Positions 47 to 43,274 of a stretch of 64,000 nt of DNA are shown here, in pieces. A program made the translations under genes and the position numbers. How positions within the stretch are numbered: the stretch's first letter is position 1; each line of letters starts with the position of its first letter. The notes beneath the pieces were generated by a model. The model saw nothing but the letters and a program-made list of their open reading frames with translations, did no database searches and had not been told where the DNA came from. Source of the DNA: an uncultured Candidatus Saccharibacteria bacterium (lineage in GTDB: Bacteria; Patescibacteriota; Minisyncoccia; Phycocordibacterales; UBA1006); contig CAZROP010000001.1 in NCBI GenBank assembly GCA_964601935.1, positions 20,127 to 84,126 of the forward strand, written 5' to 3'.

Positions 47-2041
47 TTACTGCAAACTTTCCATCAGAGCAACTGTCTTTGGACCTACAACACCGTCTAC
101 TCGCAGTTTGTGTACCTTTTGGAACATACGTACCACCTGATCTGTCTTGGGTCCGAATCCACCATCATCGAGCATTGGTTTTGGGGTAAGTTTTTGTGTA
201 TTCAAAAATTGCTGCAATGCCCGGACATGTTTTCCTTCCTGTCCTTTTCTCGTTACGCGATTGCGCAGGAGTGAAAAATCAATTGACTCTGACTTGGCAA
301 CTTCTTTTATCAGAGATAGTGCCTTGCTTTTGGTATCTAAAGGAGTAGTTTTCGCCGCAACAACAGAGGGATTGTACGCCCCTCCGCCTCCACCACCTGA
401 CCCTCCAGTATTTGCCTGTGCGCTGACAGTTGCAGTACGTACTACCTGAGCTGCATTATTCCCTGCCGCATCAGCAACATTATATGTTATGGTATATGCA
501 CCAGGTGCGGCAGTATTTATAGAATTCACCACAACAATATCACTCGTGATAGTACCGTCAATATTATCTACTGCTGTCGCACCCTCATTTGTATAGTTGT
601 CGCCAACATTCATTGTCAAATGTGGAGAGCCAAGCAAGGTAATCACAGGAACTGTACGATCGATAATAATACCGCTAGTCCCTGTACCCGCGAGTAAACT
701 GCCATAACTATCCTGATACTGCAACTCTACGGAATATGTTCCCTCTGCCAATGTTGATACACCTCCCACATAGCTGGTAACCGCGGGGCTGCTCGCTATC
801 AGACCGGCGCTATTAGTGGTAAGGGTAAACGTATGATTACCCGCTGCGACATCAGCCAACGTTGCCGTAACAGTAGAAGGTCCTGTAAAAACAAGCTTGA
901 TAGACCCTGCAAGAGGTGTCTCAGGAAGAGCGTAGTTAACGGCGATACTCGTACTGTAGTTGCCTGCAGCAGGGGTAGTTAATGTTGCAAACTCGGTGAT
1001 GTCAGCATACGCGAGCTCTGGATACGTCGAGGTCATATGCCAAACACCAGGGAAACTCCAGGCAGATAATGGCGCATTCCCCTGAACATAGAAGTGAGAA
1101 GTACTATTATTAATAACAGTACACCCTGTACTACCCGTCTGATAGCACTGCGCAGGGTTATCAGGCCTATTGTTCCAGTACACATTAGTAGGAGCAAACA
1201 CTGACCCGCTCCCCGTATTAATCTCTCCCGTCAAACCAAAGTTTGAAGCATTCGCATTAACACTCGTATCCGAAAAGGCATTGTTCACAATAACATCATG
1301 GTCACCTGTAATAATGCCGAACAAGCCACCACTATTACCTCCTCCGCTTATACTACCCGTACTGTATACATTGGTGTACGTACTCGTACCCGATGTCCAG
1401 AAATCTTCTCCTGCAATCCCTGCAACATTTCCTCCTGCACTAGATGAAGCATTAATATTACGCGCATAGCTATTTGTAATTAGACCACTCACGTTACTCA
1501 CAATACCAAACAAGCCTCCAACAACACCATTGGTTCCGCTGATTGTGAGATCATCTACAAATGATGCCGATACATTGGTGTTAGTAATATTACCAATCAG
1601 GCCTCCCACAAAACTATCACCGCTAATAGTACTGTTGCGGAGACCGACTCCCGAGATAGTGCTGTTGTCAGCTGTTCCTATGAGGCCCACATTCTGACTA
1701 CCCGTAATAGTAATATTATCGAATATCACATCCTGAATAGTTGCTCCATTGATATATCCGAATACACCCAGCCATGACGTTCCTGGCTGTGAAATAGTAA
1801 TATTATAAATCTTATGACCATTACCATCGAATGTTCCCGTGAATTTTGCACCAGGATTACCGATGCGTGTGAACGCGCCCGAACAGGTGATGTCGTTCGA
1901 TAATTCGTAACTGAGACCAAGCCCAGAATTTATATTTTGGAATCCTGCACAGTCAGTAATAGCTACTGCAAATGCACTGTGACTAACGCCAAAAAATGCT
2001 GTGATGAAAATAATGCCAAAAAGATAGTGTTTGATATTCAT
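47..2041 (-). CDS. Secreted right-handed beta-helix repeat protein with an Ig-like (HYR/DUF5011-like) module and a C-terminal PG_binding_1 domain
   Basis: N-terminal signal peptide (MNIKHYLFGIIFITAFFGVSHSAFA). Many GGLIG/GGLFG beta-helix-like repeats. A 'DNIDGTITSDIVVVNS...AAGN' Ig-like segment. The C-terminus 'LQQFLNTQ...DGGFGPKTDQVVRMFQ...VDGVVGPKTVALM' matches the PG_binding_1 consensus. Start placed at the third in-frame Met, just before the signal peptide. Confidence 0.6.
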   Translation of the reverse strand: MNIKHYLFGIIFITAFFGVSHSAFAVAITDCAGFQNINSGLGLSYELSNDITCSGAFTRIGNPGAKFTGTFDGNGHKIYNITISQPGTSWLGVFGYINGATIQDVIFDNITITGSQNVGLIGTADNSTISGVGLRNSTISGDSFVGGLIGNITNTNVSASFVDDLTISGTNGVVGGLFGIVSNVSGLITNSYARNINASSSAGGNVAGIAGEDFWTSGTSTYTNVYSTGSISGGGNSGGLFGIITGDHDVIVNNAFSDTSVNANASNFGLTGEINTGSGSVFAPTNVYWNNRPDNPAQCYQTGSTGCTVINNSTSHFYVQGNAPLSAWSFPGVWHMTSTYPELAYADITEFATLTTPAAGNYSTSIAVNYALPETPLAGSIKLVFTGPSTVTATLADVAAGNHTFTLTTNSAGLIASSPAVTSYVGGVSTLAEGTYSVELQYQDSYGSLLAGTGTSGIIIDRTVPVITLLGSPHLTMNVGDNYTNEGATAVDNIDGTITSDIVVVNSINTAAPGAYTITYNVADAAGNNAAQVVRTATVSAQANTGGSGGGGGGAYNPSVVAAKTTPLDTKSKALSLIKEVAKSESIDFSLLRNRVTRKGQEGKHVRALQQFLNTQKLTPKPMLDDGGFGPKTDQVVRMFQKVHKLRVDGVVGPKTVALMESLQ

Positions 2042-2391
2042 ATATTTAAAACGAGGAAGTAGATTCATATAGCTATATAGTACCAAACAAAATTAGGTAT
2101 GTATGCAGAGGAATCCACTTTTTAAAGAGACTGTCGCAGAACTGATAAACGATGTGTGCATTTCTATCAGAAAAGTTTGAGCCTCACTTTTCGAAGCCTA
2201 ACCGATTGGAGTCGCTTCATGGAAAAACATCTGCCAACCCCCACCAGTCTTTCTCCAATGAGAACTTCTCTGAGAAATAACCTTATCTTTGCCATCAGTA
2301 ATTCTTTCTGTCTTGAATGTCGCGATCGCAATATCATTAGATAGAATATTTACCGCAAAATCACTCATTTGCATTTTGTCGTTTACTTTTT

Positions 2392-5873: not shown

Positions 5874-5969
5874 GTCACGTCTTCAATCGCTGTTTTAAAA
5901 TTACAAAAACACGCAGAATGGAGCCGCGTGTTTTTGTAGTATTCGGGTCACTCCGATACTTAGCTCTAT

Positions 5970-6057
5970 TGGCGGAGACGATGGGATTCGAACCCATGGG
6001 GCTGTTACGCCCACCTCCTTAGCAAGGAGGCACAATCGGCCACTCTGACACGTCTCC
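5970..6057 (-). tRNA. tRNA-Ser (anticodon GCT)
   Basis: Reverse complement folds as a cloverleaf: GGAGACG acceptor, long variable arm, anticodon loop TTGCTAA, T-loop GGTTCGAATCC, 3' GCCA. Confidence 0.85.
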
Positions 6058-17502: not shown

Positions 17503-17516
17503 ATAATATTATCAGA

Positions 17517-18427: not shown

Positions 18428-21400
18428 TTACTTGGGGCACCCAACCATCACCTTAATCTTAGCGCTCAGTGTAGGGGTATATGCTCCTGTCTCAGCCATA
18501 TTGAACCTCTTCTGCAACAAACGTACATACGCCTTGGACGACCTCCCATACACTCCGTCTATGACTACTTCACCTCTGAGGACATAGGCTATGAATCTCT
18601 GAAGATTAGTGATTGATGTCTTTGAGCTTGAGGACGATATGGTAGTGGCTGGTAATGCTGCACAGGCTTGTGCCAGTACTGCAGGCGGTAGTTTCTGTAT
18701 ATGGCAGAGCATATCAGAATGGAGAGGCAGTGTAGGTTCGGTGTCGAATACATTCGAGAAACCCCGCAGGTCTATTCCTGCTCCTGTGAGTATTGATACA
18801 CCAGGTGTTGTAGCATAGAGATCTCTTTGTGTAGGAGTGAGTTGTGAGTCTATAACCTTGTAGGCAGAGGTACAAGTAGGCAATACTTCTCCTCCTGATG
18901 CATAGGTTGTAGGCTTCTTAGTCTTCTTTGCATTATAGAGCTCTATCAGTTTTGTCATGAATGGATTACTGAGGATATTTGTTTCTACAGGTATATTGTT
19001 CTTCTTATGGAGATCAGTGATTGCTTTGGTTGTTGTTGTGTTTTGTCTTCCTGTGATAGTTGTTTTGTAACCTAGAGTACGAAGCATGGATTGGATGGAT
19101 TTCCAGTCTACTTTTCCGGTGGGGGTGGTGGTTGAGATGGGTGTAGTAGTAATTGCTGGAGGTAAAATTGTTGAGGTTGGTGTCTTTATGCAGCCCGTTG
19201 GAGTGAGGATGTGTGTTGAGGGGCAGCTGGGGGTGGAGGGTCCTCCTCCTCCTGAAGAAACAGAAGGTGCTGGGGTATAGACAATCAAAGCTTTATTTGC
19301 GCTCAAACTACCAGCTACACCAGGCGATGGAAGCAACAAACGTACCGGAGCCGTTTGTGCAGTGGTTGTTATGTTGCCTCCATTCAGATTGAGGGCACCT
19401 ACTGATGCGTAATCGAGATCAGAAGAAGTATCGCTTGGTCCCACAGTATAATTAAACGTTAGTGTATCAGTACCCGATCCCGAAATATAATTAGCCACTG
19501 CATCAGTCGCACCAGTCTCTAGTGTCAACTGCGGTGTTCCTGTGACGGTTACTGATTCACTGAATTGAATCAGAATATTAATGGTACCACCGTTCGTGTA
19601 CGAGCCATCCGAATTACCGGAAGCAACGTTGAGAATGGTAGGGACACTTATATCGAAAATCATAGTGCGATTCGCCGGCTCATCAGATACATAAAGCCTC
19701 TTATTTTGAGAATCTATCATGAGGTCAATAGGGTCTACGATACTGGATTGCGTGACAGCGGTACTATAGTTCAAAAAATTAGGTTGTCCGAGCACATTGA
19801 TAGCTGACTCTCCATTGGTGATATCTGCCACGTCAAATACAAGAACACGGGCAGCCGAGTAATCTGCGACAAACAATCTACTGTACACCTCATCATAGCT
19901 TAGCCCATTCGGCTCGCCACCAAAACCAGCTTGACCTCCGTTAGCGTTTGCTGTAACAAAATCAGGTTGTCCGAGCACATTGATAGCTGACTCTCCATTG
20001 GTGATATCTGCCACGTCAAATACAAGAACACGGGCATTACCACCATCTGAAACAAATAACCTTCGCTGAATAGCGTCATACGTAACCCCTGTAGCTTCGT
20101 CCATCTTACTCTGTGTCGTACCGACAGTGCAGGTAACAAAGTCAGGTTGTCCGAGCACATTGATAGCTGACTCTCCATTGGTGATACCTGCTATATCAAA
20201 AACAACAATACGGCGGTTGCTCCGATCTGAAACAAACAATCTATTTCCCGTCGGATCGAGCGATAAATAGCTAGGATTATTTAATCTTGAAGCTGAACAA
20301 GCACTTGTAATATTGCTGAAATTTGCTTGCCCCAAAACATTTACAGGAGCATCTCCGTTCTCTATAGTGGAAACATTCCATACGAGAACACGCTGCTTGT
20401 CCGCATCTGCCACAAACAGCCTGTTCTGCCCTGAATCATAAACGAGACCTGCAGCATAAGAAAATCCGTAGAACCCCCCCGAGGACGTATCCCAGAAATT
20501 CTGCTGCCCTAATACATAATCAGGTGTTTTGTCTACCAAGATATTTGATGAATTTAAGTTAAATACTAAAATACGAGAACCATCTGCCAAAAAAAGTCTA
20601 TGATTAGTATAATCAATCGCAAGACCTGCAGGCTGACTCAACCCATAAGGATTTATCTGCGTACCGTCGTTACTATCTTGTGTATAATAATCTACTTCTA
20701 GCCCATCATTATAAGTCGACTGCCCTACAGCGTCAATCGCATCTTCTCCATCAGTAATAGCTGTAGTATCAAATATCATTATACGGTTACTGCCAGTGTC
20801 TGATACATAGGTTCGATTATTGGTAGAGTCATAATATACTCCTTCTGGGGAACTAGTAACCCCTGTGTCCGCAAATCCAGATCCTGACTCAAAATCAGGC
20901 TGACCTAAAATATTAACCGCAGGCTCACCATTGGTAATAGTTGCTATATTAAACACTTTTACACCACTGCCCCCGCTCTCTGCAACATACAATCTATTAT
21001 TTGCTGCATCGTGGGCGATCGCATTGGGCTGATTCATGCCATCTTGGGTAATATTGTCACTAGCACTGACAAAATCAGGTTGACCTAGCACATTGATAGC
21101 GTTTTCTCCATCAGTAATAACTGTAGTGTCAAATACGAGAACTCGATGATTTGCGGTATCTGCAACATAGGCACGAGTTCCTGATGTATTGATCCCTATA
21201 CCCTGCGGGGCGAACATCCTGTTCTGTGAGGCGAGAGCTGAGCTTGTTGTAAAATTAGCTTGCCCGAGTACATTAGCTGCAGCCTGGCCATTAACAATAG
21301 AAGTAGTGTTATATATCACAGCACGATTATTACCTGTATCTGCAACGTATAAACGAGCATTGACACTATCGTATGCCAGTCTATACGGAATATTCAGACG

Positions 21401-21979
21401 CCCTGCAGCGAGCGTGCCTGTACCGCTAGTGAAATCTGCCTGCCCTAAAACATTAACAGCGCTCTCGCCATTGGTAATAGATGTAACATCAAATACTAGT
21501 ATTCGGTTATTAGAGGTGTCAGCGACAAACAATCTATTATTACCACTATCATGTGCTATTCCCTGCGGACCCTTCAACATCGTTTGTGTAGTACCCTCTA
21601 CGCGCAAGTAAAAACCCTGTTGACCCAATACAAAATCTGGAGTTTTGTCTACAAGCTGATTCGAGACATTGAGATTGAATACCAGCACCCTATTATTACC
21701 TGAATCAATGACAAACAAACGATGATTGCTGGCATCTAAGGTGGCTTGAGCGGGCCCATTCAATCCGTACGGCGTCATATCACCAGCGCCACCATTCTCG
21801 CTACTGCTAGTATAGCTCACTTCACCCCCCTCACGATTGACATACTGGCCAATAGCATCTATAGCATTCGCGCCATTCACAATAGCAGCATATGAATACA
21901 GCGGTATAGCACTTAGCACGGCTAGTGCAACGAACCCAATATATCGATAGACAGTATTCATGGTAATAGGTGATTTCAT
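18428..21979 (-). CDS. Giant secreted NHL-repeat beta-propeller protein (1183 aa) with C-terminal tandem PG_binding_1-like domains
   Basis: Signal peptide. More than 15 NHL-type repeats ('NNRVLVFD', 'NHRLFVAD', 'ITNGESAINVLGQPDF'). The C-terminal ~250 aa is shared with the 2116-aa protein and carries two peptidoglycan-binding-like repeats (LRTLGYKTTITG...; DGVYGRSSKAYVRLLQ). Confidence 0.7.
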   Translation of the reverse strand: MKSPITMNTVYRYIGFVALAVLSAIPLYSYAAIVNGANAIDAIGQYVNREGGEVSYTSSSENGGAGDMTPYGLNGPAQATLDASNHRLFVIDSGNNRVLVFNLNVSNQLVDKTPDFVLGQQGFYLRVEGTTQTMLKGPQGIAHDSGNNRLFVADTSNNRILVFDVTSITNGESAVNVLGQADFTSGTGTLAAGRLNIPYRLAYDSVNARLYVADTGNNRAVIYNTTSIVNGQAAANVLGQANFTTSSALASQNRMFAPQGIGINTSGTRAYVADTANHRVLVFDTTVITDGENAINVLGQPDFVSASDNITQDGMNQPNAIAHDAANNRLYVAESGGSGVKVFNIATITNGEPAVNILGQPDFESGSGFADTGVTSSPEGVYYDSTNNRTYVSDTGSNRIMIFDTTAITDGEDAIDAVGQSTYNDGLEVDYYTQDSNDGTQINPYGLSQPAGLAIDYTNHRLFLADGSRILVFNLNSSNILVDKTPDYVLGQQNFWDTSSGGFYGFSYAAGLVYDSGQNRLFVADADKQRVLVWNVSTIENGDAPVNVLGQANFSNITSACSASRLNNPSYLSLDPTGNRLFVSDRSNRRIVVFDIAGITNGESAINVLGQPDFVTCTVGTTQSKMDEATGVTYDAIQRRLFVSDGGNARVLVFDVADITNGESAINVLGQPDFVTANANGGQAGFGGEPNGLSYDEVYSRLFVADYSAARVLVFDVADITNGESAINVLGQPNFLNYSTAVTQSSIVDPIDLMIDSQNKRLYVSDEPANRTMIFDISVPTILNVASGNSDGSYTNGGTINILIQFSESVTVTGTPQLTLETGATDAVANYISGSGTDTLTFNYTVGPSDTSSDLDYASVGALNLNGGNITTTAQTAPVRLLLPSPGVAGSLSANKALIVYTPAPSVSSGGGGPSTPSCPSTHILTPTGCIKTPTSTILPPAITTTPISTTTPTGKVDWKSIQSMLRTLGYKTTITGRQNTTTTKAITDLHKKNNIPVETNILSNPFMTKLIELYNAKKTKKPTTYASGGEVLPTCTSAYKVIDSQLTPTQRDLYATTPGVSILTGAGIDLRGFSNVFDTEPTLPLHSDMLCHIQKLPPAVLAQACAALPATTISSSSSKTSITNLQRFIAYVLRGEVVIDGVYGRSSKAYVRLLQKRFNMAETGAYTPTLSAKIKVMVGCPK

Positions 21980-29140: not shown

Positions 29141-29345
29141 ATGGGAGTAGTGTAGCACGCCGTGCAAAGACACAAACCCCACCCTAACCCTCCCCTTTTC
29201 TAGGGGAGGGAACCTGCAGGAACGGCTGCGAGCCGCCCTCCACCACCCCATTCCCCAACCACTTGACACAGCGCAATTAGTCAGTACTATATAACTTCGT
29301 TTTAGAAACAGTTATTTATTAACCTTATTCAAACATCTTTCGCAT

Positions 29346-30793: not shown

Positions 30794-31912
30794 TTGTATA
30801 TGAAAACACCCTACCTAGTATCTCTCATTGTATTACTCGCGACCGGCACCTACGCCCTCGCTCAACTCACCCCACCTCTCCAAACACCTACCTGTAGTCC
30901 TACATCAGCAGGGTGTCAGATAGCACCTCCTATCAATGCAGGAACATATTATCAGGAGAAGAAGTCTAATGTGGTGGTACGTTTGCCTGTTGCATCTTCA
31001 AGTATTCTTCCCTTCTTGGATCCTACATGGAATCCTGTACTACAGAACTATCCTGCAGCGACTCCTTCTCATTTTGGGTTTGATACTAACGGTTATGTAC
31101 GTGGACAGGGTGTGATTGCGAATAAAACGTTGAAGGTTGGAAAGGATTGGGTTATTACAACACCGAATACACCTCCTGTGGGCGAGTTGTTTATTCCTTA
31201 TGCGTCGGAACCGCAAACTAGTACCGTCTCAGAGCGACCTCTCTGTGTAGTCAAGGGTACCGGCCTCATAAAAAGGTGTGTATCTGCAACGACTGTAGCA
31301 GAACCATCAGTTAACGTCACGGCATCTACAACAGCACTGGGTAGTGCTGGAGGTAATGTTACCTACACATGGACATCTACGAATACAGACTCCTGTGGAT
31401 TCATAAATGGCCCATCATATATCAGTTATGTGCCCGGAGGAACACCTAGCAATACATCCGGCAGCGTTGCGATGGCATATCCTGCAAACTCTTCAGGAGC
31501 ACATCGGCAGTACAAATTCGGAGTCTATTGTTACAAGGCTGTAACAGGTGGCGCCAACAAAACAGTTATTGATGACGTAGCACTGACTGTATTCGGCAGC
31601 ACTCCACCACCGCCATTACCTACCGTAACGGTTCTAACTCCTATCGAAAGCCATGATCTTGATAACCCAAATACGCCGTTTACTGTGCAGTATGAAGTAG
31701 CCAATGCAACATCATGTGCATACTCATGGAATACTCGACCTGCTAGCAGTACATTTACTCCTGTTAGTCAAACAACACCGACAAATGGTATCTATTCACT
31801 AACTCTAAACCTATTACCTGCGGGTCCTAGTACTCATTACGGGGTGAACATAACCTGTACCAACAGTACAGGTAGTACCACCCAGTGGTATCGAATTTAC
31901 TACGGAATATAG
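30794..31912 (+). CDS. Secreted Thr/Ser-rich protein, paralog A of a tandem pair
   Basis: Signal peptide MKTPYLVSLIVLLATGTYALA. The first 426 nt are identical to the downstream paralog. Divergent Cys-containing Thr/Ser-rich C-terminal half. Confidence 0.55.
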   Translation: MYMKTPYLVSLIVLLATGTYALAQLTPPLQTPTCSPTSAGCQIAPPINAGTYYQEKKSNVVVRLPVASSSILPFLDPTWNPVLQNYPAATPSHFGFDTNGYVRGQGVIANKTLKVGKDWVITTPNTPPVGELFIPYASEPQTSTVSERPLCVVKGTGLIKRCVSATTVAEPSVNVTASTTALGSAGGNVTYTWTSTNTDSCGFINGPSYISYVPGGTPSNTSGSVAMAYPANSSGAHRQYKFGVYCYKAVTGGANKTVIDDVALTVFGSTPPPPLPTVTVLTPIESHDLDNPNTPFTVQYEVANATSCAYSWNTRPASSTFTPVSQTTPTNGIYSLTLNLLPAGPSTHYGVNITCTNSTGSTTQWYRIYYGI

Positions 31913-32097
31913 TAATGGTGAGTAATCTACTCACTGATTCCTTACAAAACAGCCTCAACTTCTGAGGCTGTTTTGTTTGGTATAGAGAAATCTATTATCA
32001 ATAAAGGTTATTACTGTTTCAGTTACAACTTTATCCACAAACAGAGGAATCCTGGAACAACTATTGAGTAATGGAACACGTTATACTGTATCTACCT

Positions 32098-33315
32098 ATG
32101 AAAACACCCTACCTAGTATCTCTCATTGTATTACTCGCGACCGGCACCTACGCCCTCGCTCAACTCACCCCACCTCTCCAAACACCTACCTGTAGTCCTA
32201 CATCAGCAGGGTGTCAGATAGCACCTCCTATCAATGCAGGAACATATTATCAGGAGAAGAAGTCTAATGTGGTGGTACGTTTGCCTGTTGCATCTTCAAG
32301 TATTCTTCCCTTCTTGGATCCTACATGGAATCCTGTACTACAGAACTATCCTGCAGCGACTCCTTCTCATTTTGGGTTTGATACTAACGGTTATGTACGT
32401 GGACAGGGTGTGATTGCGAATAAAACGTTGAAGGTTGGAAAGGATTGGGTTATTACAACACCGAATACACCTCCTGTGGGCGAGTTGTTTATTCCTTATG
32501 CGTCGGATCATCAGACAAACGCAAAGTCAGAAAAGGTTCTCTGCGTCGCAAAGGGAACGGGTCTAATAAAACAGTGTAGCCCTGCAACAGTCCCAACCCA
32601 GGGAACAACTGCCAGCACACCACTGACTGCAACATTAACAGCATCACAATCAACTGTCACAACGACTGTACCCAGCTCTATTTTGACCTGGACATCAACA
32701 GGCGCTACTGAATGTTATCCGGTGAGTGGATGGGGGTTTGATTTTAATACTCGCGCAATATCAGGGACAGAAACAGTGACTCTTACCAACCCCACATCAC
32801 TGTTCGGCGATAACTCGACATTTATTGTAGCCTGTACGAATGCAGCACAGAACGTGGTCTTTGCCTCTACCAAAATTAATGCTGACCTACGTCCTGTTAT
32901 AGGTACATTCTGTGCAACACCGTATAAAAACCTTGGATCAGGTTGGCAGCCTACAGGGGGATGTACCAAAGTCATAAATGGTGCGTACGACAATAACGAA
33001 TACTTTGTTACTCACCTGAACGTGACCAGCCCTAATGGGTCACCAGTACAATGTAAAGCGCGAACAGTTGCTAGTAATATTGCAGGATCTAACACGTGGA
33101 GCTTCCTCGCAAGTGGTGTGTGGACGACATCAAAGACTGTACCAACAGGGGTAATCGTCAGTGGCGGCACACCTAATGCTTGTCTGAATGGCTGTCAGTA
33201 TGATGAAATTGTCTCTGCTCCTTATACTTCTGCACAACTGCAAGTAGAATGCACCAATACTGCAGGAACATCTGGCGATAGCATCATTCTTACCACAGGA
33301 CTATCTACTGATTAG
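32098..33315 (+). CDS. Secreted Thr/Ser-rich protein, paralog B of a tandem pair
   Basis: Same 142-aa N-terminus as paralog A, then an unrelated C-terminal half. Start placed at the Met that begins the identical block. Confidence 0.55.
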   Translation: MKTPYLVSLIVLLATGTYALAQLTPPLQTPTCSPTSAGCQIAPPINAGTYYQEKKSNVVVRLPVASSSILPFLDPTWNPVLQNYPAATPSHFGFDTNGYVRGQGVIANKTLKVGKDWVITTPNTPPVGELFIPYASDHQTNAKSEKVLCVAKGTGLIKQCSPATVPTQGTTASTPLTATLTASQSTVTTTVPSSILTWTSTGATECYPVSGWGFDFNTRAISGTETVTLTNPTSLFGDNSTFIVACTNAAQNVVFASTKINADLRPVIGTFCATPYKNLGSGWQPTGGCTKVINGAYDNNEYFVTHLNVTSPNGSPVQCKARTVASNIAGSNTWSFLASGVWTTSKTVPTGVIVSGGTPNACLNGCQYDEIVSAPYTSAQLQVECTNTAGTSGDSIILTTGLSTD

Positions 33316-33332
33316 GCTCATAATTAAATATA

Positions 33333-33363
33333 AAACCCCTCGCACTTGCGAGGGGTTTTATTT
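33333..33363. terminator. Bidirectional hairpin terminator between paralog B and typA
   Basis: AAACCCCTCGCACTTGCGAGGGGTTTTATTT, a GC stem flanked by A/T runs on both sides. Confidence 0.6.
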
Positions 33364-33396
33364 CATGACTTACAACTTCAAATTAAAGTAACTATA

Positions 33397-35193
33397 TTAC
33401 TTAGATCTTCCACCACGTGCACGCTCTGATTCTGTCAGATACTGCTTGCGCAAACGTACAGATTTTGGTGTGATCTCTAACAACTCATCATCTTTCATAA
33501 CCTCCAAGCCTCGTTCGATACTCAACGTATACGGGGGTACGAGGTTAATCGCCTCGTCGTTACCACTCGAACGAACATTGGACTGGTTCTTACCTTTTAT
33601 AGGGTTTACCGTCATTTCTTCTCCCTTGCTCGTGTTTCCAATAACCATTCCTTCGTATACCGGCTCTGCGTGACCAATATAGAGCAGTCCGCGATCCTGT
33701 AAATTCCACAGGGCATACCCTGCAGCAACTCCTGAAATCATAGAAATCATAGATCCAGCAATATGTTTTTTGATTTCACCTGCATGAGGACGGAATGCCA
33801 AGAAACGAGCAGCAATGATACCGAGCCCCTTTGTCGCAACAACAAACTCTCCACGATAACCAATCAGTCCGCGTGTAGGAATTTCGAATGTAAGACGTGT
33901 TGTTTTATCGCGTTCTTCCATATTCATCAGCATGCCTTTGCGGCGATTCACTGTATCAATAATTCCTCCAGAAAATTCTGTAGGAACATCAATAGTCAAC
34001 TCTTCGTACGGCTCAGTGATACTACCATCTTCCTCTCTCCGTGTTATTGCTTGTGGCTGAGACACTGCCATTTCGAATCCTTCGCGACGCATTTGCTCCA
34101 ACAACACAGCTATATGCAGCTCACCACGTCCACAGAGCAGTGCATTACCGTCCTCGAATGTGATTCTCATACCAACGTTCGTTTCCAATTCTCGTTCTAA
34201 TCGTTCTTTAATCTGGCGCCCTGTTACAAATTTGCCCTCCTTTCCAGCGAACGGAGAGTCATTTGCCATAACCACCACTGATATGGTTGGCTCATCAATA
34301 GCAATAGACGGTAACAAAGGCGTGTCGAGGTCGGTTACGATCGTCTCTCCAATCATTGCGTTAGCATTTCCTGCTATTACTCCAATATCACCTGCTGATA
34401 ATACCGGAACAGCTTCACGCTCAATGCCGCGAAATGAGTAGAGTTTTGTAATACGGAATGTTGTCTTGCTGCCATTCCCATCAACTGAGTGTACCTGAGA
34501 GCCGTCTTTTATAGACCCCTGGTACACGCGCGCTACAGACAAACGACCCAAGAAATTATCATAACCCAGAGAAAAGGTCTGAGCCTGAAATGGTAAGTCA
34601 ACAGTTAGCGCTGCGTTTGAAGTATGCTCCAACACAGTGTCCAGCAATGGTGAAAGATCAACTTTATCATCATTCAGATTCTTCATCGCAACTCCCTCGC
34701 GACCGATTGCATATACGACAGGAAATTCTATTTGATGATCGTCAGCCCCTAATTCCAGGAATAATTCGAGTACAGCATCCAGCGTAGCTGCCGGGTTTGC
34801 TGCTGGCTTGTCAATTTTGTTCAATACCACAATAGGTCGCAATCCTAATTCCAAAGATTTCTTTAACACAAAACGTGTCTGAGGCATGGGGCCTTCCTGG
34901 GCATCTACCAGAAGTAGCACAGTATCAATAGAGCGTAGTACACGCTCTACCTCGGATCCGAAATCAGCGTGACCCGGTGTGTCTACAATATTTATTTTTA
35001 TATCTTTCCATACCAGCGAGGTATTTTTTGCATAAATAGTAATACCTCTCTCCCCTTCCAGCTGATTACTGTCCATGGTACTACCCTCGTTCCATACACC
35101 ACAAAACTGCATTAGCTTGTCAGTAAGCGTGGTCTTGCCGTGGTCAACATGGGCAATAATTGCAATATTTCTAATATCAGAGAATTGTGACAT
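33397..35193 (-). CDS. typA: Translational GTPase TypA/BipA
   Basis: 'IAIIAHVDHGKTTLTD' G1 motif; EF-G-like domain order; 598 aa, typical of BipA. Confidence 0.9.
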   Translation of the reverse strand: MSQFSDIRNIAIIAHVDHGKTTLTDKLMQFCGVWNEGSTMDSNQLEGERGITIYAKNTSLVWKDIKINIVDTPGHADFGSEVERVLRSIDTVLLLVDAQEGPMPQTRFVLKKSLELGLRPIVVLNKIDKPAANPAATLDAVLELFLELGADDHQIEFPVVYAIGREGVAMKNLNDDKVDLSPLLDTVLEHTSNAALTVDLPFQAQTFSLGYDNFLGRLSVARVYQGSIKDGSQVHSVDGNGSKTTFRITKLYSFRGIEREAVPVLSAGDIGVIAGNANAMIGETIVTDLDTPLLPSIAIDEPTISVVVMANDSPFAGKEGKFVTGRQIKERLERELETNVGMRITFEDGNALLCGRGELHIAVLLEQMRREGFEMAVSQPQAITRREEDGSITEPYEELTIDVPTEFSGGIIDTVNRRKGMLMNMEERDKTTRLTFEIPTRGLIGYRGEFVVATKGLGIIAARFLAFRPHAGEIKKHIAGSMISMISGVAAGYALWNLQDRGLLYIGHAEPVYEGMVIGNTSKGEEMTVNPIKGKNQSNVRSSGNDEAINLVPPYTLSIERGLEVMKDDELLEITPKSVRLRKQYLTESERARGGRSK

Positions 35194-35273
35194 AGCTGTT
35201 CTAAACTATCATACACAGGCAGTATTGTCAAAACAGCGAAGGATTACACCCTGCTATCAATAAGGTGTGTTTA

Positions 35274-36155
35274 CTACATCTGGTGTAGCCGTGCTATACG
35301 TTCCTCCACAGGAGGATGTGACGCCAGTAATCGTGCAGGTGCCAGCGAACCGAATGGATTACTAATATACATATGGGCTGTCGCCGTATGAGCATGCTCC
35401 AGAGGATGATCATAACTACTGATTTTACTCAACGCATTCGCCAATCCACGAGGGTTACCGGTGATCAGTGCACCGGTACTATCTGCCAGGTACTCTCGCT
35501 TTCGTGATACTGCAGCTACAATCATTGCTGCGCCTATCTGCGCCAGTATTCCTGACACGATTACTGCAACGAATCCCAGAATTCCGCGACTATCATCATC
35601 TCCTAATAATGCATTTCTACCGAGCATGTCAGCCACAATTGCGACAAACCCTGCAACAATGGTCGCCACCGACATCAATAATATATCTTTGTTTCCAATG
35701 TGCGCCAATTCATGGGCTATTACTCCTGCAAACTCTTCTTGATCCAAACGTTGTATTAAACCTACAGTCACCGCAACAGCGCTATGATCTTTATTACGAC
35801 CCGTTGCAAATGCGTTAGGCGCTTGGTCTGGAATTATGTAGAGGCGCGGCATAGGCAGTTGGGCACGCATGGTTAACTCGCGTACAGTGCGATAATAGTT
35901 GGGATATTCTAATTCTGTAGCCAACTCAGCACCTGCCATTCGTATAGCAATCTTATCAGAAAACCAATATGATACGATATTCATTACTACAGAAAACCCT
36001 ATCATGATATAGAGAAGTGAAGGGTTCTGAAAACGAACTGATAGCCAATAACCAATGGCGATTACGACGACCAGAAACAATCCCATAATTGTATAGGTCT
36101 TTGTCGTAGCTGCAGCCTGGTGGGTAAATAACTTTGACTGTATAAATTGTGCCAT
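35274..36155 (-). CDS. htpX: M48-family zinc metalloprotease HtpX
   Basis: Two N-terminal TM helices, a 'HELAHIGNKD' HExxH motif and downstream Glu; 293 aa. Confidence 0.8.
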   Translation of the reverse strand: MAQFIQSKLFTHQAAATTKTYTIMGLFLVVVIAIGYWLSVRFQNPSLLYIMIGFSVVMNIVSYWFSDKIAIRMAGAELATELEYPNYYRTVRELTMRAQLPMPRLYIIPDQAPNAFATGRNKDHSAVAVTVGLIQRLDQEEFAGVIAHELAHIGNKDILLMSVATIVAGFVAIVADMLGRNALLGDDDSRGILGFVAVIVSGILAQIGAAMIVAAVSRKREYLADSTGALITGNPRGLANALSKISSYDHPLEHAHTATAHMYISNPFGSLAPARLLASHPPVEERIARLHQM

Positions 36156-36283
36156 ATGCCATCATTATACTTGAAAAGCTAGTAAAAAAGAATACACTAG
36201 GCTAGTTCTATACGAATCAGCAATTAGCAGATAATCAACGTTAGATCCTATATCTAGAGAGGATCGACACCTACTACAACCTT

Positions 36284-36883
36284 ATGTCACTACTCGACTA
36301 CAACGAAATTCGCGAAAAGAAGGTAATTATTTATGACGATGAACCGTGCCTGGTAGTATCATCCCACGTCGCACGCACACAAATGCGCAAGCCGACCAAC
36401 CAAACAAAACTGAAATCGCTCATTTCTGGAAAGGTATTCCAGGCAGTATTCCAGGCAAGCGATCGCGCAGAAGAGGCCGACATTGAAAAACGTGTTTCAA
36501 AGTTTCTCTACGCACAGCCACAGAAAAACGAGTGGTGGTTTGCCACTATCGAGGACACCAAGGATAGATTCAAACTAACAAGAGACGAGATTGGTGAAGC
36601 GGCAAAATGGATTCGTGAAGGATCTGACGTTACCATTAAATTCTTTTTGAAAGATGATGACGAAGAAGTAGTGATTGGAGCAGAAACACCTATAAAGGTA
36701 GAGCTGACAGTAAAGGAAGCGCCCCCTAATGTACGTGGTGACACTGCAACAGGCGGGCGCAAGACCGTTCTACTAGAGAACGGAACCGAGTTATCGGGTG
36801 TACCATTATTTATAGAGGCTGGTGATATTATTCGCATCAACACCGAACTAGGTGAATATGTGGAACGTGTAGAAAAACGATAG
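36284..36883 (+). CDS. efp: Elongation factor P
   Basis: KOW-like N-terminus plus two OB domains; ~190 aa; EF-P conserved pattern (GK..A...T). Confidence 0.75.
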   Translation: MSLLDYNEIREKKVIIYDDEPCLVVSSHVARTQMRKPTNQTKLKSLISGKVFQAVFQASDRAEEADIEKRVSKFLYAQPQKNEWWFATIEDTKDRFKLTRDEIGEAAKWIREGSDVTIKFFLKDDDEEVVIGAETPIKVELTVKEAPPNVRGDTATGGRKTVLLENGTELSGVPLFIEAGDIIRINTELGEYVERVEKR

Positions 36884-36886
36884 TGA

Positions 36887-36920
36887 AAAGCCCTCACCTA
36901 GGTGAGGGCTTTTCACTATC
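36887..36920. terminator. Bidirectional hairpin terminator between efp and the giant minus-strand gene
   Basis: GTGAAAAGCCCTCACCTAGGTGAGGGCTTTTCAC is a perfect palindrome. Confidence 0.6.
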
Positions 36921-36923
36921 TAA

Positions 36924-39900
36924 TTATTTGGGGCATTCAGCCAGTGTTTTGAGCTTTGCACCCAACACCGCGGTATATACTCCCGTTTCTGTAAGTCCTA
37001 ATCGGTTTTGTAGCAATCTGATATATGCTTTAGATGACCTCCCATACACTCCGTCTACTACTATTTCTCCTTTCATTACGTACGCTATGAATCTCTGTAA
37101 TGAGGCTACAGATGACTTAGGACTGAGTGAAGATATAGTTGTTAGTGGAAGAGCTGAACAAGCAGTCTCTAATACAACGTCAGGGATACCTGACACATGA
37201 CATTGAATATCACTGTGTAATGGAAGTACGGGGTATGTATCGAACGCACGAGAGAACCCACGCAAATCGATCCCCTTCCCAGTCAAAATGGTAACATTCG
37301 GTAAACTACCATACACAGCTTTCTGGTCAACAGATAACTGTGAATCTATAACCTTGTAGGCAGAGGTACAAGTAGGCAATACTTCTCCTCCTGATGCATA
37401 GGTTGTAGGCTTCTTAGTCTTCTTTGCATTATAGAGCTCTATCAGTTTTGTCATGAATGGATTACTGAGGATATTTGTTTCTACAGGTATATTGTTCTTC
37501 TTATGGAGATCAGTGATTGCTTTGGTTGTTGTTGTGTTTTGTCTTCCTGTGATAGTTGTTTTGTAACCTAGAGTACGAAGCATGGATTGGATGGATTTCC
37601 AGTCTACTTTTCCGGTGGGGGTGGTGGTTGAGATGGGTTGCGTTGAAGAAAGAGTAGGTGTTGGTATATCTGCAGCTTTAGTGACAATCGGAACAGGGAT
37701 GATTGGTATTACTCCACCGCCCCCACCAGAAGAAGACTGTGGTGGAGTAACTATTAGGGGAGAAAACCATCCCGTGGTATTTCCTACGTTAGTGCTGTTG
37801 GCAGGATCTACAGGAGTGGAAAAGACTGATGAATTGTCAGTAATGACACTATCCTTGATCGATAGAAATCCCGAACTTACAAAGGTAGAACTACCAGCCA
37901 TATCTATGGTTGCAGCAGTGTCCGGCATAGAAGAAACTATTGAGAGCCTATCGTTTGCATCTAGACCATTTAGAGTGAGCACTCCTGCTACAGTCTGGGT
38001 ACCACCTGTTGGTAATGTAATGACAGCAGGAGTAGAATTGTTAGAACTATCAGAAAAAGTAAGGTTGTTCCAGGTAGTGGCACCAGTGAGAGCGTGGTCG
38101 TCGCCCGAACTGAATACTACAGTACCGTTGTTATGGTTAAAGGTTCCTGTGTTGGTGAAGGTGCCAGCTATATTAAGAGTGTCTGAAGGGGCGGTGAACG
38201 TTCCTTGGTTAACCATACTACCTGTACCACCACCTGTATTCAGAGTAATTGTCTCTCCCGACGTAAACATAGATCCTGAAGGAATAAAAAATGTACCCGC
38301 CGTTATAAAGACAACTTCGTGAGGTAGAGTGCCCATGAGGCTACTTATGGGTATACTGGGGTCACCACTTTTTGCAAGCACCAGATCTGCGTTGGTCATT
38401 GCTCCATCAGAAATACGTAAAATCTTATCCAGCGCCAGGTGTCCTTCATGGTCGACAAAATCACCACCTACTAACACCTTTCCGCCAGGCTGCACTGCAA
38501 ATGAATACACACTTGCACTAAGCGCTGATGGAATGAACGTAGTATCTCGTGTTCCGTCCGTGTTCAGACGAGTTATTTTATCTAGATTAGATTGACCATT
38601 ATAGTCATTAAAATTTCCACCTACCAGAATCTTTCCATCTGGCTGCAGAGCTAATGTATACACACCTGCCCCAAACCCTGCTGGAACCATGAAACTTGTA
38701 TCTCGTGTTCCGTCCGTGTTCAGACGAGCGATTCTATCCAAATTAGGCTGAGCATCATAATTTTGGAACTCTCCTCCTACAAGTATCTTTCCATCTGGCT
38801 GTATCACAATATTATATACATAATCACTGAGAGCTACCGACGGAACGAATGTTGTATCTCGTGTTCCATCAGCGTTGATACGAGCCAAATAAGCAAGCTC
38901 TGGCAGAGCATCGTAACTCTCGAAGAATCCTCCTACAAGTATCTTTCCATCTGGCTGGATCGCCGCGCTCTGCACGATCTGGCCAAATGCCACCGCAGGA
39001 GCGAACGTTGTATCTCGCGTTCCATCAGTATTCAGACGAGCAATTCCGTCCAGATTGGGCTCCGAATCATAATCTGTAAAACTACCTGCAATTACAATAC
39101 GCTCATCAGCATCTAGATTAATAGAGGATACAGAACCCGTCGAAGCACCGACCGGGATAAAACTAGTGTCACGACTACCGTTCGTATTCAGACGAGCAAT
39201 CCTATCCAGGTTAGCCTGCGCACCATAATCAGTAAAACCACCACCGACCAAAATCTTTCCATCTGACTGTAAAGCCAATGAATTTATACTTGCGTTAAAC
39301 GCGGCAAAAATAGAGAAGCCTGTATCTCGTGTTCCGTCAGCATTAAGACGAGCAATATAGTCCAGATTAGCTTGACCATCGTAGTCGGTGAAATTTCCAC
39401 CTATAACTATCTTCCCATCAGGCTGAACAACTATTGCATTAACAGTATTATTCAATGATGCGGCTGGAGAAAATGCAGGATCGTTAATTCCACCCCTATC
39501 CAATCCCCACACCGTCACCCTATCAGCATAAATATCCAACCCCGTGAGACTGATACCATCTTTTCTAGCCACAGCCACCCCTGCCTCGTCCTCAATATAC
39601 AGAGTAATGATATCGCCATCGTAAAGCTGTACTCCGCTAAATGAATACGCGCCACCACTAGTTACAGCTGTATTTATAGATACACCATTAACAAACAGTT
39701 GCACCGTAATATTATCCGCCACAGGGGTTATGCCATCATTAGCATATACATTTCCCGATATAGTATACCTAGGAGGAAATGCCATATCCAAAACAGAGAT
39801 AAAAGCATCTGTGCCTCCTGCTAATTCTGCCTGATATACTCCTGCAGTCGTAGGAAACGCCGTACCTGTTTGCCCTGTTAGGTATATATTATTGGTAGAA

Positions 39901-42900
39901 TCGAGAGTTATAGCGTAACCAATATCATTATTGGCTGATCCACCCAGGTATGTACTTGCGATCAAGTTTGTAAGATTACTAGGAAATTGTGATATGAAAG
40001 CATCTTGTGTACCACCAATAACAGTATCATATGCTCCAATCGTTGTAGGAAATCCTGTTCCCCCTACTAACCCTGTTACGTATACGTTATTGGTAGAATC
40101 GATATCTATACTATAGCCACTATCTATATTACCTGTGCCACCGAGGAGTGTGCTGGCGGTAAGACTGGCGAGTGTGCTTGGTAGCTTTGAAATAAAGATA
40201 TCTGCTGCACCGCTCAAACTCGTGTCATAAGCACCAACCGTTGTTGGGAACGCTGTTGCTGCTAAACCTGTGACATAAACATTGTTGCTGGAATCCAGGG
40301 CTATGTCGTAGCCAGTATCATTACCTGTACCACCGAGGAGTGTGCTGGCGGTAAGACTGGCGAGTGTGCTTGGTAGCTTTGAAATAAAAGCGTCGCGCGA
40401 TCCACCGATAACAGTATCATATGCTCCAATTGTTACCGGAAAAGTAGATTCTGCCTGACCTGTCACATAAACATTGTTGCTGGAATCCAGGGTTAGGTTA
40501 TACGCGATGTCTGTATTCGTCCCACCGAGAAATGTACTCGCGGTGAGGGTTGCAAGACTACTAGGAAGTATCGATATAAAAGCATCGCTGCCACCTCCCA
40601 CAGTTGTATCATAAGCACCACCCGTTGTCGGGAACGCTGGCCCAGCACCACCTGCCACATAAACATTGTTGCTGGAATCCAGGGCTATACCGTAACCAGT
40701 ATCAATGCCCGTTCCGCCCAGAAAGGTACTAGCTGTCAGGCTAGTTAGCGTGCTCGGAAGTACTGACACAAAAGCATCAGTAGAGGCACCCCCACTAAGC
40801 GCAGTCTGATATGCTCCGACTGTTGTAGGAAAACCTGTTGCTGCAGAGCCTGTGACATAAACATTGTTGCTGGAATCCAGAACTATATCATATCCAATAT
40901 CAGAACCTGCCCCTCCCAAGTAAGTCGCAGCTGCAAGCGTCGTAAGTCCGTTATTGAATTTATAAATCACTACATCCTCAGCACCACCATATGTAGTATC
41001 ATAAGTTCCTGCGCCAGCTGGCGAGTGACTCCTGGATTGACCAACCATATAAATATTACCAGATGTATCGACTGTAATACCGCGACCTATATCATTACCC
41101 GTTGAACCAATTTGATCGCCTCCATACAATGTGCTGGCGGTCAACGCCGTGAGATTGCTGGACAACTTGGAAATAAAAACATCTTGTGATGCGCCTAGCG
41201 TAGTGTCATAAGCACCACCTGTTGTCGGGAACGCTGTTGCAGCTGTACCAGTTATATACACATTATTAGTGGCATCCAATGCTATATCATTCCCAGCTTC
41301 AGTGCTGGTACCACCTAAAACTGTACTCGCAGTCAATGTAGCGAGAGTACTGGGAAATACGGAGACAAAGGCATCCGTACCGCTCACAGTTGTATCATAA
41401 GCACCACCTGTTGTCGGGAACGCTGTTGCAGCATCGCCTACGACGTACACATTGTTACTAGCGTCTAATATAATTCCTCGCCCTATATCAGTACTACTTC
41501 CACCTAGAAATGTACTCGCGGTGAGGGTTGCAAGATTGCTGGGAAGTATCGATATAAATGCATCAGTACCACTAATAGTGGTATCATATGCGCCCACTGT
41601 TGTAGGAAAACCTGTTGCTGCTTGACCTGTAATATATACATTACTACTGGAATCTACTGCAATATCATTACCTGCATCTGCACCAGATCCGCCAAGATAT
41701 GTGCTAGCATTCAGAGTAGTGAGATCGGCAGGTAACGCAGCAACAAATGCATCCAATGAACTACCTCCATACGAAATATCATACGCCCCGACAGTCGTTG
41801 GAAAACTCCCCGACGTACTACCTGTCAGATACAGCATATTTCCTGTACCCCACACCATACTTACTGCCCTATCGTTGCCCGATCCGCCCAGATATGTGCT
41901 AGCATTCAGAGTAGTGAGATCTGGAGAAAATACGGTTATAAAAGCATCTGTGGTCGAACCCCCATGTGTTATCTGGTAACTTCCAGCTGTTACAGGAAAC
42001 CCCGATGCCGCCTCTCCTGCTATATAAATCGCATTATCAGCACCCACCAGTATGCTGGTACTTCCTTCATTACTCGCGGCACCACCTAGAAATGTGCTAG
42101 CAGTTAAGGTAGACAAATCATTAGTGAGTTTCGAAACGAATACATCAACAGTACCACCACCAAAAGTAGGCTGATAGACACCTGCTGTGGTTGGAAATCC
42201 ACTTGCAGCAGTCCCGACTATATAGACATTGCCTGAACTATCCAGTGCAATATCATTGCCTGTATCTGCACCAGACCCTCCTAAAAATGTTTGCCCCTGC
42301 AAGGTCGTCATTGCATCATCGAACTTTAGCACTAGAATATCACCCAAACCATTCGGTGTCGTATCATAGCCTAGACCTGTTATGGTTGGATCGCCTGTTC
42401 TACCTATTATAAAGACAGAATTATTATGCCATACAATACCGTTGCCTGTTTCGAGCTCTGTATACGACTCACCCCCTACATACGTACTCGCCAACAACGG
42501 ATCAATATATAACATATGTGTTGTATCATATTCTCCAACATCGAATCCGTAGGAGTCATTGTTTTGATAAAGTGTGTACTCTACATCTACGGATACTTTT
42601 TCTCCATTGATGTATTGAAAAGCAACAGGTGCGGTCATACGAACACCTCCTGCCCGGGTATTAATTATCAGTTCTCCTGTATCTTCATCGATAGAGAGGT
42701 CTTCTATACCTTCTATTGCAACCTGAATAGTGTCTGGTGATGACTGCGGTGATACGTTGAATATCTTTTCTATATTCTTTTGATAGGCGCGCAGAGTTAC
42801 ACCTATGCCTGGCCATACTAGTGTAAACTCTAAATCTTTATGAGTGTTCAGGTCAGTTTCCCATTTACTAGAATCATCGCCTATGAATCGTGATACTGTT

Positions 42901-43274
42901 GTTTCTGATTTCTGTGCTGGAACCAGATTATTAGTACTACCTCCAACAAACTGTTCGCGAAATGTAGTATCAGGCAACGCATAGGTAATACCCTCTGATC
43001 CAGCATATACTGTTCCAGCACTAGTAACCGCGTAGTACGGATATTGTTGTGCCTCTCCTAGGTTGCCTGAGTTTTCTATCCAAGGCAACTGTACCCGTGC
43101 CATACTTGCCTGTTGATCTGAAGTGAGGGCGGTTTCTGAACTTTCTATATCGGGCACGAGTGCTGCAGTGTTCGCATAGGAAATATTGGGGAGCATGAGT
43201 GTACTGCAGAATATTATGAGAAGGGTGGATGTTGCTATTTTTTTAAAAGATTGAAGGGTTTTTTTTGTTGGCAT
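36924..43274 (-). CDS. Giant secreted surface protein (2116 aa): SBBP beta-propeller repeats plus delta-60 repeats plus C-terminal PG_binding_1-like anchoring module
   Basis: Signal peptide. About 18 'LGGSGxDxGxxIALDSSNNVYVTGxAxxxFPTTxGAYDTT' repeats of the SBBP / beta-propeller type. About 8 'DGKILVGGNFTDYDGQANLDxIARLNxDGTRDTxF' repeats of the delta-60 type. C-terminal 250 aa homologous to the end of the NHL protein. Confidence 0.7.
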   Translation of the reverse strand: MPTKKTLQSFKKIATSTLLIIFCSTLMLPNISYANTAALVPDIESSETALTSDQQASMARVQLPWIENSGNLGEAQQYPYYAVTSAGTVYAGSEGITYALPDTTFREQFVGGSTNNLVPAQKSETTVSRFIGDDSSKWETDLNTHKDLEFTLVWPGIGVTLRAYQKNIEKIFNVSPQSSPDTIQVAIEGIEDLSIDEDTGELIINTRAGGVRMTAPVAFQYINGEKVSVDVEYTLYQNNDSYGFDVGEYDTTHMLYIDPLLASTYVGGESYTELETGNGIVWHNNSVFIIGRTGDPTITGLGYDTTPNGLGDILVLKFDDAMTTLQGQTFLGGSGADTGNDIALDSSGNVYIVGTAASGFPTTAGVYQPTFGGGTVDVFVSKLTNDLSTLTASTFLGGAASNEGSTSILVGADNAIYIAGEAASGFPVTAGSYQITHGGSTTDAFITVFSPDLTTLNASTYLGGSGNDRAVSMVWGTGNMLYLTGSTSGSFPTTVGAYDISYGGSSLDAFVAALPADLTTLNASTYLGGSGADAGNDIAVDSSSNVYITGQAATGFPTTVGAYDTTISGTDAFISILPSNLATLTASTFLGGSSTDIGRGIILDASNNVYVVGDAATAFPTTGGAYDTTVSGTDAFVSVFPSTLATLTASTVLGGTSTEAGNDIALDATNNVYITGTAATAFPTTGGAYDTTLGASQDVFISKLSSNLTALTASTLYGGDQIGSTGNDIGRGITVDTSGNIYMVGQSRSHSPAGAGTYDTTYGGAEDVVIYKFNNGLTTLAAATYLGGAGSDIGYDIVLDSSNNVYVTGSAATGFPTTVGAYQTALSGGASTDAFVSVLPSTLTSLTASTFLGGTGIDTGYGIALDSSNNVYVAGGAGPAFPTTGGAYDTTVGGGSDAFISILPSSLATLTASTFLGGTNTDIAYNLTLDSSNNVYVTGQAESTFPVTIGAYDTVIGGSRDAFISKLPSTLASLTASTLLGGTGNDTGYDIALDSSNNVYVTGLAATAFPTTVGAYDTSLSGAADIFISKLPSTLASLTASTLLGGTGNIDSGYSIDIDSTNNVYVTGLVGGTGFPTTIGAYDTVIGGTQDAFISQFPSNLTNLIASTYLGGSANNDIGYAITLDSTNNIYLTGQTGTAFPTTAGVYQAELAGGTDAFISVLDMAFPPRYTISGNVYANDGITPVADNITVQLFVNGVSINTAVTSGGAYSFSGVQLYDGDIITLYIEDEAGVAVARKDGISLTGLDIYADRVTVWGLDRGGINDPAFSPAASLNNTVNAIVVQPDGKIVIGGNFTDYDGQANLDYIARLNADGTRDTGFSIFAAFNASINSLALQSDGKILVGGGFTDYGAQANLDRIARLNTNGSRDTSFIPVGASTGSVSSINLDADERIVIAGSFTDYDSEPNLDGIARLNTDGTRDTTFAPAVAFGQIVQSAAIQPDGKILVGGFFESYDALPELAYLARINADGTRDTTFVPSVALSDYVYNIVIQPDGKILVGGEFQNYDAQPNLDRIARLNTDGTRDTSFMVPAGFGAGVYTLALQPDGKILVGGNFNDYNGQSNLDKITRLNTDGTRDTTFIPSALSASVYSFAVQPGGKVLVGGDFVDHEGHLALDKILRISDGAMTNADLVLAKSGDPSIPISSLMGTLPHEVVFITAGTFFIPSGSMFTSGETITLNTGGGTGSMVNQGTFTAPSDTLNIAGTFTNTGTFNHNNGTVVFSSGDDHALTGATTWNNLTFSDSSNNSTPAVITLPTGGTQTVAGVLTLNGLDANDRLSIVSSMPDTAATIDMAGSSTFVSSGFLSIKDSVITDNSSVFSTPVDPANSTNVGNTTGWFSPLIVTPPQSSSGGGGGVIPIIPVPIVTKAADIPTPTLSSTQPISTTTPTGKVDWKSIQSMLRTLGYKTTITGRQNTTTTKAITDLHKKNNIPVETNILSNPFMTKLIELYNAKKTKKPTTYASGGEVLPTCTSAYKVIDSQLSVDQKAVYGSLPNVTILTGKGIDLRGFSRAFDTYPVLPLHSDIQCHVSGIPDVVLETACSALPLTTISSLSPKSSVASLQRFIAYVMKGEIVVDGVYGRSSKAYIRLLQNRLGLTETGVYTAVLGAKLKTLAECPK

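Follow-up and report, generated by a model that had tools for sequence, protein, structure and literature searches.

The shared tract and the genes that carry it

Two large surface-protein genes have in common a perfectly identical tract of 294 bp in a window of 64,000 nucleotides from an uncultured Candidatus Saccharibacteria bacterium (assembly GCA_964601935.1, contig CAZROP010000001.1, positions 20,127 to 84,126), the window being the whole stretch of DNA that was analyzed. Both genes, here called gene 1 and gene 2, lie on the minus strand, and each carries one copy of the tract inside a C-terminal module with matches to the Pfam family PG_binding_1 (PF01471; curated cut-off, 23 bits). The genes and the two copies are as follows.

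18428..21979, minus strand: gene 1, encoding a secreted NHL-repeat beta-propeller protein of 1183 residues (Pfam NHL, 1.9e-40; PG_binding_1, 36.5 bits)
36924..43274, minus strand: gene 2, encoding a secreted DUF7948 + SBBP + DUF5122 (delta-60) protein of 2116 residues (Pfam assignments; PG_binding_1, 36.3 bits)
18849..19142, minus strand: tract copy 1, inside gene 1, the NHL-repeat gene, codons 946-1044; exact match
37345..37638, minus strand: tract copy 2, inside gene 2, the DUF7948/SBBP/DUF5122 gene, codons 1879-1977; exact match

The repeat was located by BLAST and by a longest-common-substring and k-mer search of gene against gene, and it is 100% identical over 294 bp at a diagonal offset of 18496. 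The original prediction had claimed about 300 bp of perfect identity. A perfect repeat of nearly that length does exist, but the diagonal implied by the coordinates given for it was off by four bases, and a literal alignment of 18842-19141 with 37342-37641 (offset 18500) matches at 92 of 300 bases (31%), which is the chance level. Comparison of the window with itself bore out the 294-bp match, found the tract in two copies only, and returned a single other long exact repeat, of 411 bp, in a different gene pair. Each copy of the 294-bp tract begins 421 nt above the low end of its open reading frame (ORF) and in the same codon phase (coding-sequence nt 2838-3131 in gene 1 and nt 5637-5930 in gene 2, phase 2 in both). 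A shared segment out of frame in one of the genes had been named as one of the findings that would undo the claim; the tract is instead in frame in both and encodes 98 residues, all identical. The GC content of the tract (0.40) and its GC content at third codon positions (0.40) are not distinctive, and thus the donor copy cannot be identified from composition.

The two proteins resemble each other only at their C-terminal ends. As predicted, their upstream repeat bodies are unrelated by Pfam assignment (NHL versus DUF7948/SBBP/DUF5122), and their C-terminal modules are homologous but diverged, with both proteins above the 23-bit cut-off for PG_binding_1. The module takes up the last 244 residues, is 76% identical overall, and consists, in order, of a Thr-rich linker, a first PG_binding_1 domain, a Lys-rich linker, a Cys-containing region without a Pfam match, and a second PG_binding_1 domain that by itself scores 22 bits against the cut-off of 23. 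The tract corresponds to module residues 7-105: the Thr-rich linker, the first PG_binding_1 domain, the Lys-rich linker (KKTKKP), and the first residues of what we call sub-module 2. The tract peptide alone matches PG_binding_1 at 23.1 bits (E = 8.6e-5). A low-confidence AlphaFold2 (AF2) model of the module, built from a two-sequence alignment, has a mean predicted local distance difference test score (pLDDT) of 43.6, and it places three helices at residues 20-82, the only part in which pLDDT reaches 58-74. The module may anchor both proteins to the wall as a predicted peptidoglycan-binding tail. A third large protein, encoded at 47..2086, had been thought to share the anchoring strategy; it does contain PG_binding_1 (48.3 bits), but its C terminus has no homology to the module detectable by tblastn.

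Both genes are full length, with start codons of their own and hydrophobic, signal-peptide-like N termini, and thus neither is a silent cassette. Protein P0001 is the gene 1 product with a start 6 codons further downstream. A look-up by exact protein sequence returned no record for gene 1, with either of two start codons, or for gene 2. Gene 2 as read here, an intact ORF of 2116 codons, is absent from the protein collection in which its neighbors of the same contig are present, and the 149-residue cut product predicted for the gene 2 flank has no exact protein record. The absence of gene 2 may reflect a different annotated start, a pseudogene call, or a lack of annotation.

An exhaustive HMMER search with the module returned the gene itself, two distant proteins (P0002, 186 residues, and P0009, 484 residues), generic PG_binding_1 proteins, and nothing else. 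The two distant proteins match query residues 98/99-243 only, that is, sub-module 2 without the first PG_binding_1 domain. No copies or relatives of the module were found in the genome contig collection or in the metagenome contig collection; a word-indexed protein search also returned nothing, including the protein itself, and that negative carries little weight. The module is absent from the neighborhoods of 80 BipA homologs, including about 25 Patescibacteria metagenome-assembled genomes (MAGs), and PF01471 is listed in 0 of the 120 best homologs of the gene 2 body (best identity, 46%), which have other C-terminal domains instead. As none of these neighborhoods or body homologs has the tail, the predicted wall-binding tail is, as far as comparison of sequences tells, a lineage-specific addition to unrelated bodies and is common to these two genes only. 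The best relatives of the BipA encoded in the window, at 60 to 63% identity, come from MAGs of Patescibacteria, Paceibacterota, or Nomurabacteria, and thus the host is a bacterium of the candidate phyla radiation (CPR) without a close sequenced species.

Probable gene conversion between the two tails

How two genes with unrelated bodies came to be identical over 294 bp is best approached through the sequence on either side of the tract. The segments compared are as follows.

18428..18848, minus strand: diverged C-terminal flank of gene 1 (sub-module 2), 140 codons including the stop, 59.8% nucleotide identity to gene 2
36924..37344, minus strand: diverged C-terminal flank of gene 2, homologous to 18428-18848
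19175..19285, minus strand: low-complexity Pro/Thr/Gly linker of gene 1, directly upstream of the tract and weakly homologous to 37653-37757
37653..37757, minus strand: linker of gene 2 upstream of the tract, with weak homology to 19175-19285

Downstream, from the tract to the stop codon, the 59.8% nucleotide identity of the two genes is accompanied by 87 identical residues of 140 (62%), with 53 of 140 differing. The contrast is strongest at fourfold-degenerate sites, of which 29 of 38 differ in the flank and 0 of 51 differ in the tract. The synonymous divergence of the flank is saturated, and at the flank's rate the probability of finding no difference at 51 sites is about 1e-32. Moreover, when the 172 differences were placed at random over the 717 aligned sites in a permutation test of the Sawyer type, the longest identical run in 200000 trials was 59, against the 294 observed.

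The ends of the tract are also informative. Just past its downstream edge the residues D-S-Q-L are conserved while their codons differ (GAC/GAT, CAA/CAG, and CTC/TTA), and thus the boundary is a DNA-level event inside continuous protein homology. The downstream edge is neither a domain border nor the product of protein-level selection. Upstream of the tract there is no DNA-level match between the genes. Local protein alignment of the two Pro/Thr/Gly linkers, however, gave a score of 61 against 33 +/- 6.7 for composition-preserving shuffles, none of which (0 of 500) reached 61, and thus older homology probably flanks the tract on the upstream side as well. We note one island of raised identity within the downstream flank, at 18541-18600 and 37037-37096 in the second PG_binding_1 domain, where 50 of 60 nt match and an exact run of 22 nt is included. 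The island could be the remnant of an older conversion or could reflect strong amino acid or codon constraint, and the counts are small.

We conclude that the tract most probably arose by recent, nonreciprocal, ectopic gene conversion between anciently duplicated C-terminal modules. Three sequence features of a conversion tract are present: a run of identity in excess of expectation, a synonymous contrast, and diverged homology on both sides, weak on the upstream one. Recent conversion had been proposed from the letters alone, and it remains the best reading because synonymous change has reached saturation in the flank but is absent from the tract. The accompanying proposal, that the C-terminal module was exchanged as a whole, does not hold, as the tract makes up only the first third of the module and the remaining 140 codons are anciently diverged.

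The course of events may have been as follows. Long ago, a module of roughly 285 residues would have become the C-terminal part of two beta-propeller surface proteins, unrelated to each other, in a Patescibacteria (CPR) bacterium. More recently, one copy would have acted as the template, replacing a 294-bp stretch of the other or, at the least, those positions at which the two differed, probably during repair of a break or gap, leaving identity at every position, synonymous sites included, while the rest of the module retained its saturated divergence. RecA-type strand invasion with a noncrossover outcome would be the likely mechanism. Strand invasion could hardly be supported by the flanks as they are now, with about 60% identity and no identical run longer than 22 nt; thus, an island of similarity presumably existed beforehand. 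Before the last event, the converted stretch probably already surpassed the rest of the module in similarity, through earlier rounds of conversion, and that event would have spanned the whole island. The predicted functional consequence is that the first PG_binding_1 domain is identical in both proteins.

Several points weigh against conversion, or at least against its simplest form. The event seems to require a preexisting island of similarity that is not directly visible. Both edges of the tract are abrupt, and no gradient of divergence was seen beside it, where the counts are small (8 of 9, 9 of 11, 9 of 12, and 3 of 6 fourfold sites). With no gradient and such counts, the present data appear to fit a single event and a long-lived island equally. 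No recA was seen in the window. Orthologs or sister strains carrying the module were found in none of the genome, metagenome, and protein collections. Finally, the identity of 100% could be slightly overstated if a few copy-specific single-nucleotide polymorphisms (SNPs) were collapsed in assembly.

The arrangement of the copies constrains what recombination between them could do. They are direct repeats on the same strand, 18.2 kb apart, and the interval encodes a DUF3298/PdaC protein, ribulose-phosphate epimerase (rpe), RpiB, GAPDH, an AddA-like helicase-nuclease, an HhH-GPD glycosylase, BipA, an HtpX-like M48 protease, and EF-P. A crossover between the copies would therefore delete these housekeeping genes and fuse the two surface-protein genes. 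Such a crossover is probably lethal, and thus only noncrossover outcomes should survive. The tract had also been offered as a substrate for recombination-driven surface variation. That role is disfavored, both because direct repeats surround housekeeping genes and because homogenization affected the anchor rather than the repeats that are exposed. A programmed surface-variation cassette of the pilE/pilS, vlsE, sap, or slp type was rejected as well, since both genes are complete, the orientation is direct, and the window holds two copies.

The genes around the tract merit brief description. Between the copies, at 26141-29269 on the minus strand, lies the gene for the AddA-like protein, which has UvrD helicase domains and a C-terminal PD-(D/E)XK nuclease domain. 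Judged by its domains, the protein is evidence of a break-processing machinery for homologous recombination, and no addB partner was seen in the window. Directly downstream of gene 1, at 16498-18350 on the minus strand, transketolase is encoded as two genes, one for the N-terminal half and one for the pyrimidine-binding and C-terminal half. The split transketolase lies near rpe, rpiB, and the GAPDH gene, a compact pentose-phosphate and glycolysis cluster that a giant surface-protein gene interrupts. At the other end of the interval, a perfect 30-nt palindrome at 36891-36920 separates the convergent ends of the EF-P gene (36284..36883, plus strand) and gene 2 (stop codon at 36924-36926, minus strand) and is probably a bidirectional terminator hairpin. 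Further away, at 4662-5873 on the plus strand and adjoining a tRNA-Ser gene (5970-6057), is an ORF of 403 codons with a Shedu SduA C-terminal nuclease domain (PF14082, E = 4.4e-18), a candidate antiphage defense gene in a small CPR-type genome.

The second repeat and other explanations for the identity

The second perfect repeat bears on whether the 294-bp tract records an isolated event. It is a direct repeat of 411 bp, 100% identical, at 30799-31209 and 32097-32507, and it covers the start codon, the signal peptide, and the first 137 or so residues of two tandem plus-strand genes (30794..31912 and 32071..33315). Neither gene has a Pfam match, and among 5.8 billion proteins their sole homologs are each other. 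Beyond the 411 bp, identity falls to about 55 to 70% over some 90 nt and then vanishes. The repeat has the appearance of a further conversion tract, or else of a partial tandem duplication that took place very recently; if read as conversion, it shows the same process acting elsewhere in the window. Both perfect tracts are confined to the nonvariable end of the paired proteins: the 294-bp tract to a wall-binding domain, and the 411-bp tract to the signal peptide and N-terminal domain. There is a small chance that the two tracts reflect long-lived concerted evolution of attachment or export modules, maintained by selection in an episymbiont with a reduced genome. If so, the tracts would be something other than accidental repair events; every adhesin might, for example, be fitted to one wall ligand or export partner.

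Could the identity instead be an artifact of assembly or polishing? Two similar loci might have been given one consensus by bubble collapse, repeat resolution, or mis-mapped polishing, or the contig might be chimeric. The source is a metagenome-assembled contig of 377,037 bp, gene 2 as read is missing from the protein collection even though its neighbors are present, and exact repeats of such lengths (294 and 411 bp) give short-read assemblers more trouble than any other structure. An independent assembly, the Logan contigs of run SRR13208906 (k = 31), speaks against an artifact. Two Logan contigs match the window at 100% identity along 3098 and 4431 bp. The first (L002, 18878..15781) ends exactly 30 nt, or k-1, inside the tract on the gene 1 side, and the second (36908..32478) has one end 30 nt inside the 411-bp repeat and the other at the 30-nt palindrome. 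Contigs thus break k-1 inside both repeats, as a de Bruijn graph with k = 31 does at a true repeat. The breaks at k-1 mean that the read graph branches at the edge of the tract and that the reads hold that edge in two contexts. Moreover, the identity is in frame, lies at a homologous position of the module, and ends inside conserved protein sequence, none of which is expected of a chimera. An artifact could at most have sharpened near-identity, and near-identity beside saturated flanks would still indicate conversion. The concern that the repeat was an assembly artifact, raised together with the original prediction, is thus weakened by the Logan contigs without being closed, and we consider an artifact improbable.

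Marginally less probable still is the transfer of a domain cassette, in which one gene had only the linker and sub-module 2 and recently gained its first PG_binding_1 domain by illegitimate or microhomology-mediated recombination. P0002 and P0009, the only distant relatives of the module, match residues 98/99-243 and lack the domain encoded by the tract. In its extent the tract thus comes close to matching a unit that evolves separately; the AF2 model likewise suggests a self-contained three-helix unit at residues 20-82, within a model of mean pLDDT 43.6. The downstream edge, however, falls about 7 residues inside sub-module 2, amid conserved residues whose codons differ directly after it, and the linker upstream of the tract is weakly homologous too. 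Conversion of a copy that already existed is much more likely than an insertion that, without flanking homology, was in frame and hit exactly homologous points on both sides.

Finally, a function at the nucleotide level or an origin as mobile DNA is very unlikely. Under that reading the 294 bp would represent an embedded gene for an RNA, an antisense element, a mobile element of small size, or the template and variable repeats of a diversity-generating retroelement. Patescibacteria are rich in diversity-generating retroelements, and the plus (antisense) strand of the tract folds somewhat better than mononucleotide shuffles (z = -3.1). Against dinucleotide shuffles, however, the fold is not significant (z = -1.74 only), and the DNA of the tract is unremarkable as the coding sequence of a Pfam domain. 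No Rfam family matched the tract, a scan of it for promoter and terminator motifs stayed at the background level, and searches of phage, plasmid, and viral collections gave no match to it. No reverse transcriptase, transposase, or integrase is encoded by any ORF of at least 150 residues in the window, and the edges of the tract have neither terminal inverted repeats nor target duplications. A diversity-generating retroelement was rejected because there is no reverse transcriptase, the copies show zero mismatches, and substitutions in the flank have no A bias. A small mobile element resembling a miniature inverted-repeat transposable element (MITE) or an insertion sequence (IS) was rejected because edge features and a transposase are lacking and both copies occupy a homologous position in the module.

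Relation to known systems

Gene conversion as the source of the tract has consequences beyond the two genes. It would provide a clean conversion tract of textbook quality, with edges sharp to the base pair, in a CPR genome, where recombination is hardly documented, and it would show that dispersed repeats undergo homologous recombination in a genome as small as this one. Surface proteins here appear to have arisen by the addition of a wall-binding tail, specific to the lineage, to propeller bodies that are unrelated to each other. On the practical side, assemblies of this lineage can be expected to break or collapse at the two perfect repeats. No paper on gene conversion in Patescibacteria came up in a full-text literature search.

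RecA-dependent noncrossover conversion keeps the copies of tufA/tufB and of the rRNA operons identical at synonymous or neutral sites. Those are whole genes of identical function, unlike the one-domain island described here, which lies inside diverged modules on unrelated proteins. In the sap genes of Campylobacter fetus and the slpA/slpB genes of Lactobacillus acidophilus, the box that encodes the wall anchor is an identical stretch common to otherwise different surface-protein genes. The sap and slp systems switch by inversion or promoter capture with silent copies, whereas here there are two complete genes in direct orientation with housekeeping genes between them, and thus switching by crossover would not be viable.

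Two further systems involve paralogous genes for surface or envelope proteins. In Mycobacterium tuberculosis, exact tracts are copied between paralogous PE/PPE loci up to 190 kb apart (PMC12046097). The likeness lies in short exact tracts between distant genes for envelope proteins, detected as two exact hits in one genome (PMC12046097). The PE/PPE events were seen directly, in outbreak strains and with long reads, whereas the tract described here is the end state of one assembly, and the divergence around it is far greater, to the point of saturation. In Helicobacter pylori, the adhesin paralogs babA, babB, and babC have near-identical termini and a divergent middle and undergo intragenomic gene conversion between distant loci (PMC4552749). 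Gene 1 and gene 2 resemble them in being paralogous surface-protein genes with near-identical terminal regions and probable conversion between distant loci. Exchange among the bab genes yields chimeras that alter adhesin expression and phase variation, and their C-terminal region is more than 90% identical over hundreds of base pairs (PMC4552749). In the genes described here, by contrast, the bodies are nonhomologous, only 294 bp are homogenized, and no expression switch is apparent. The Patescibacteria setting is thus new, while conversion between paralogs encoding surface or envelope proteins is well known and no new mechanism is revealed.

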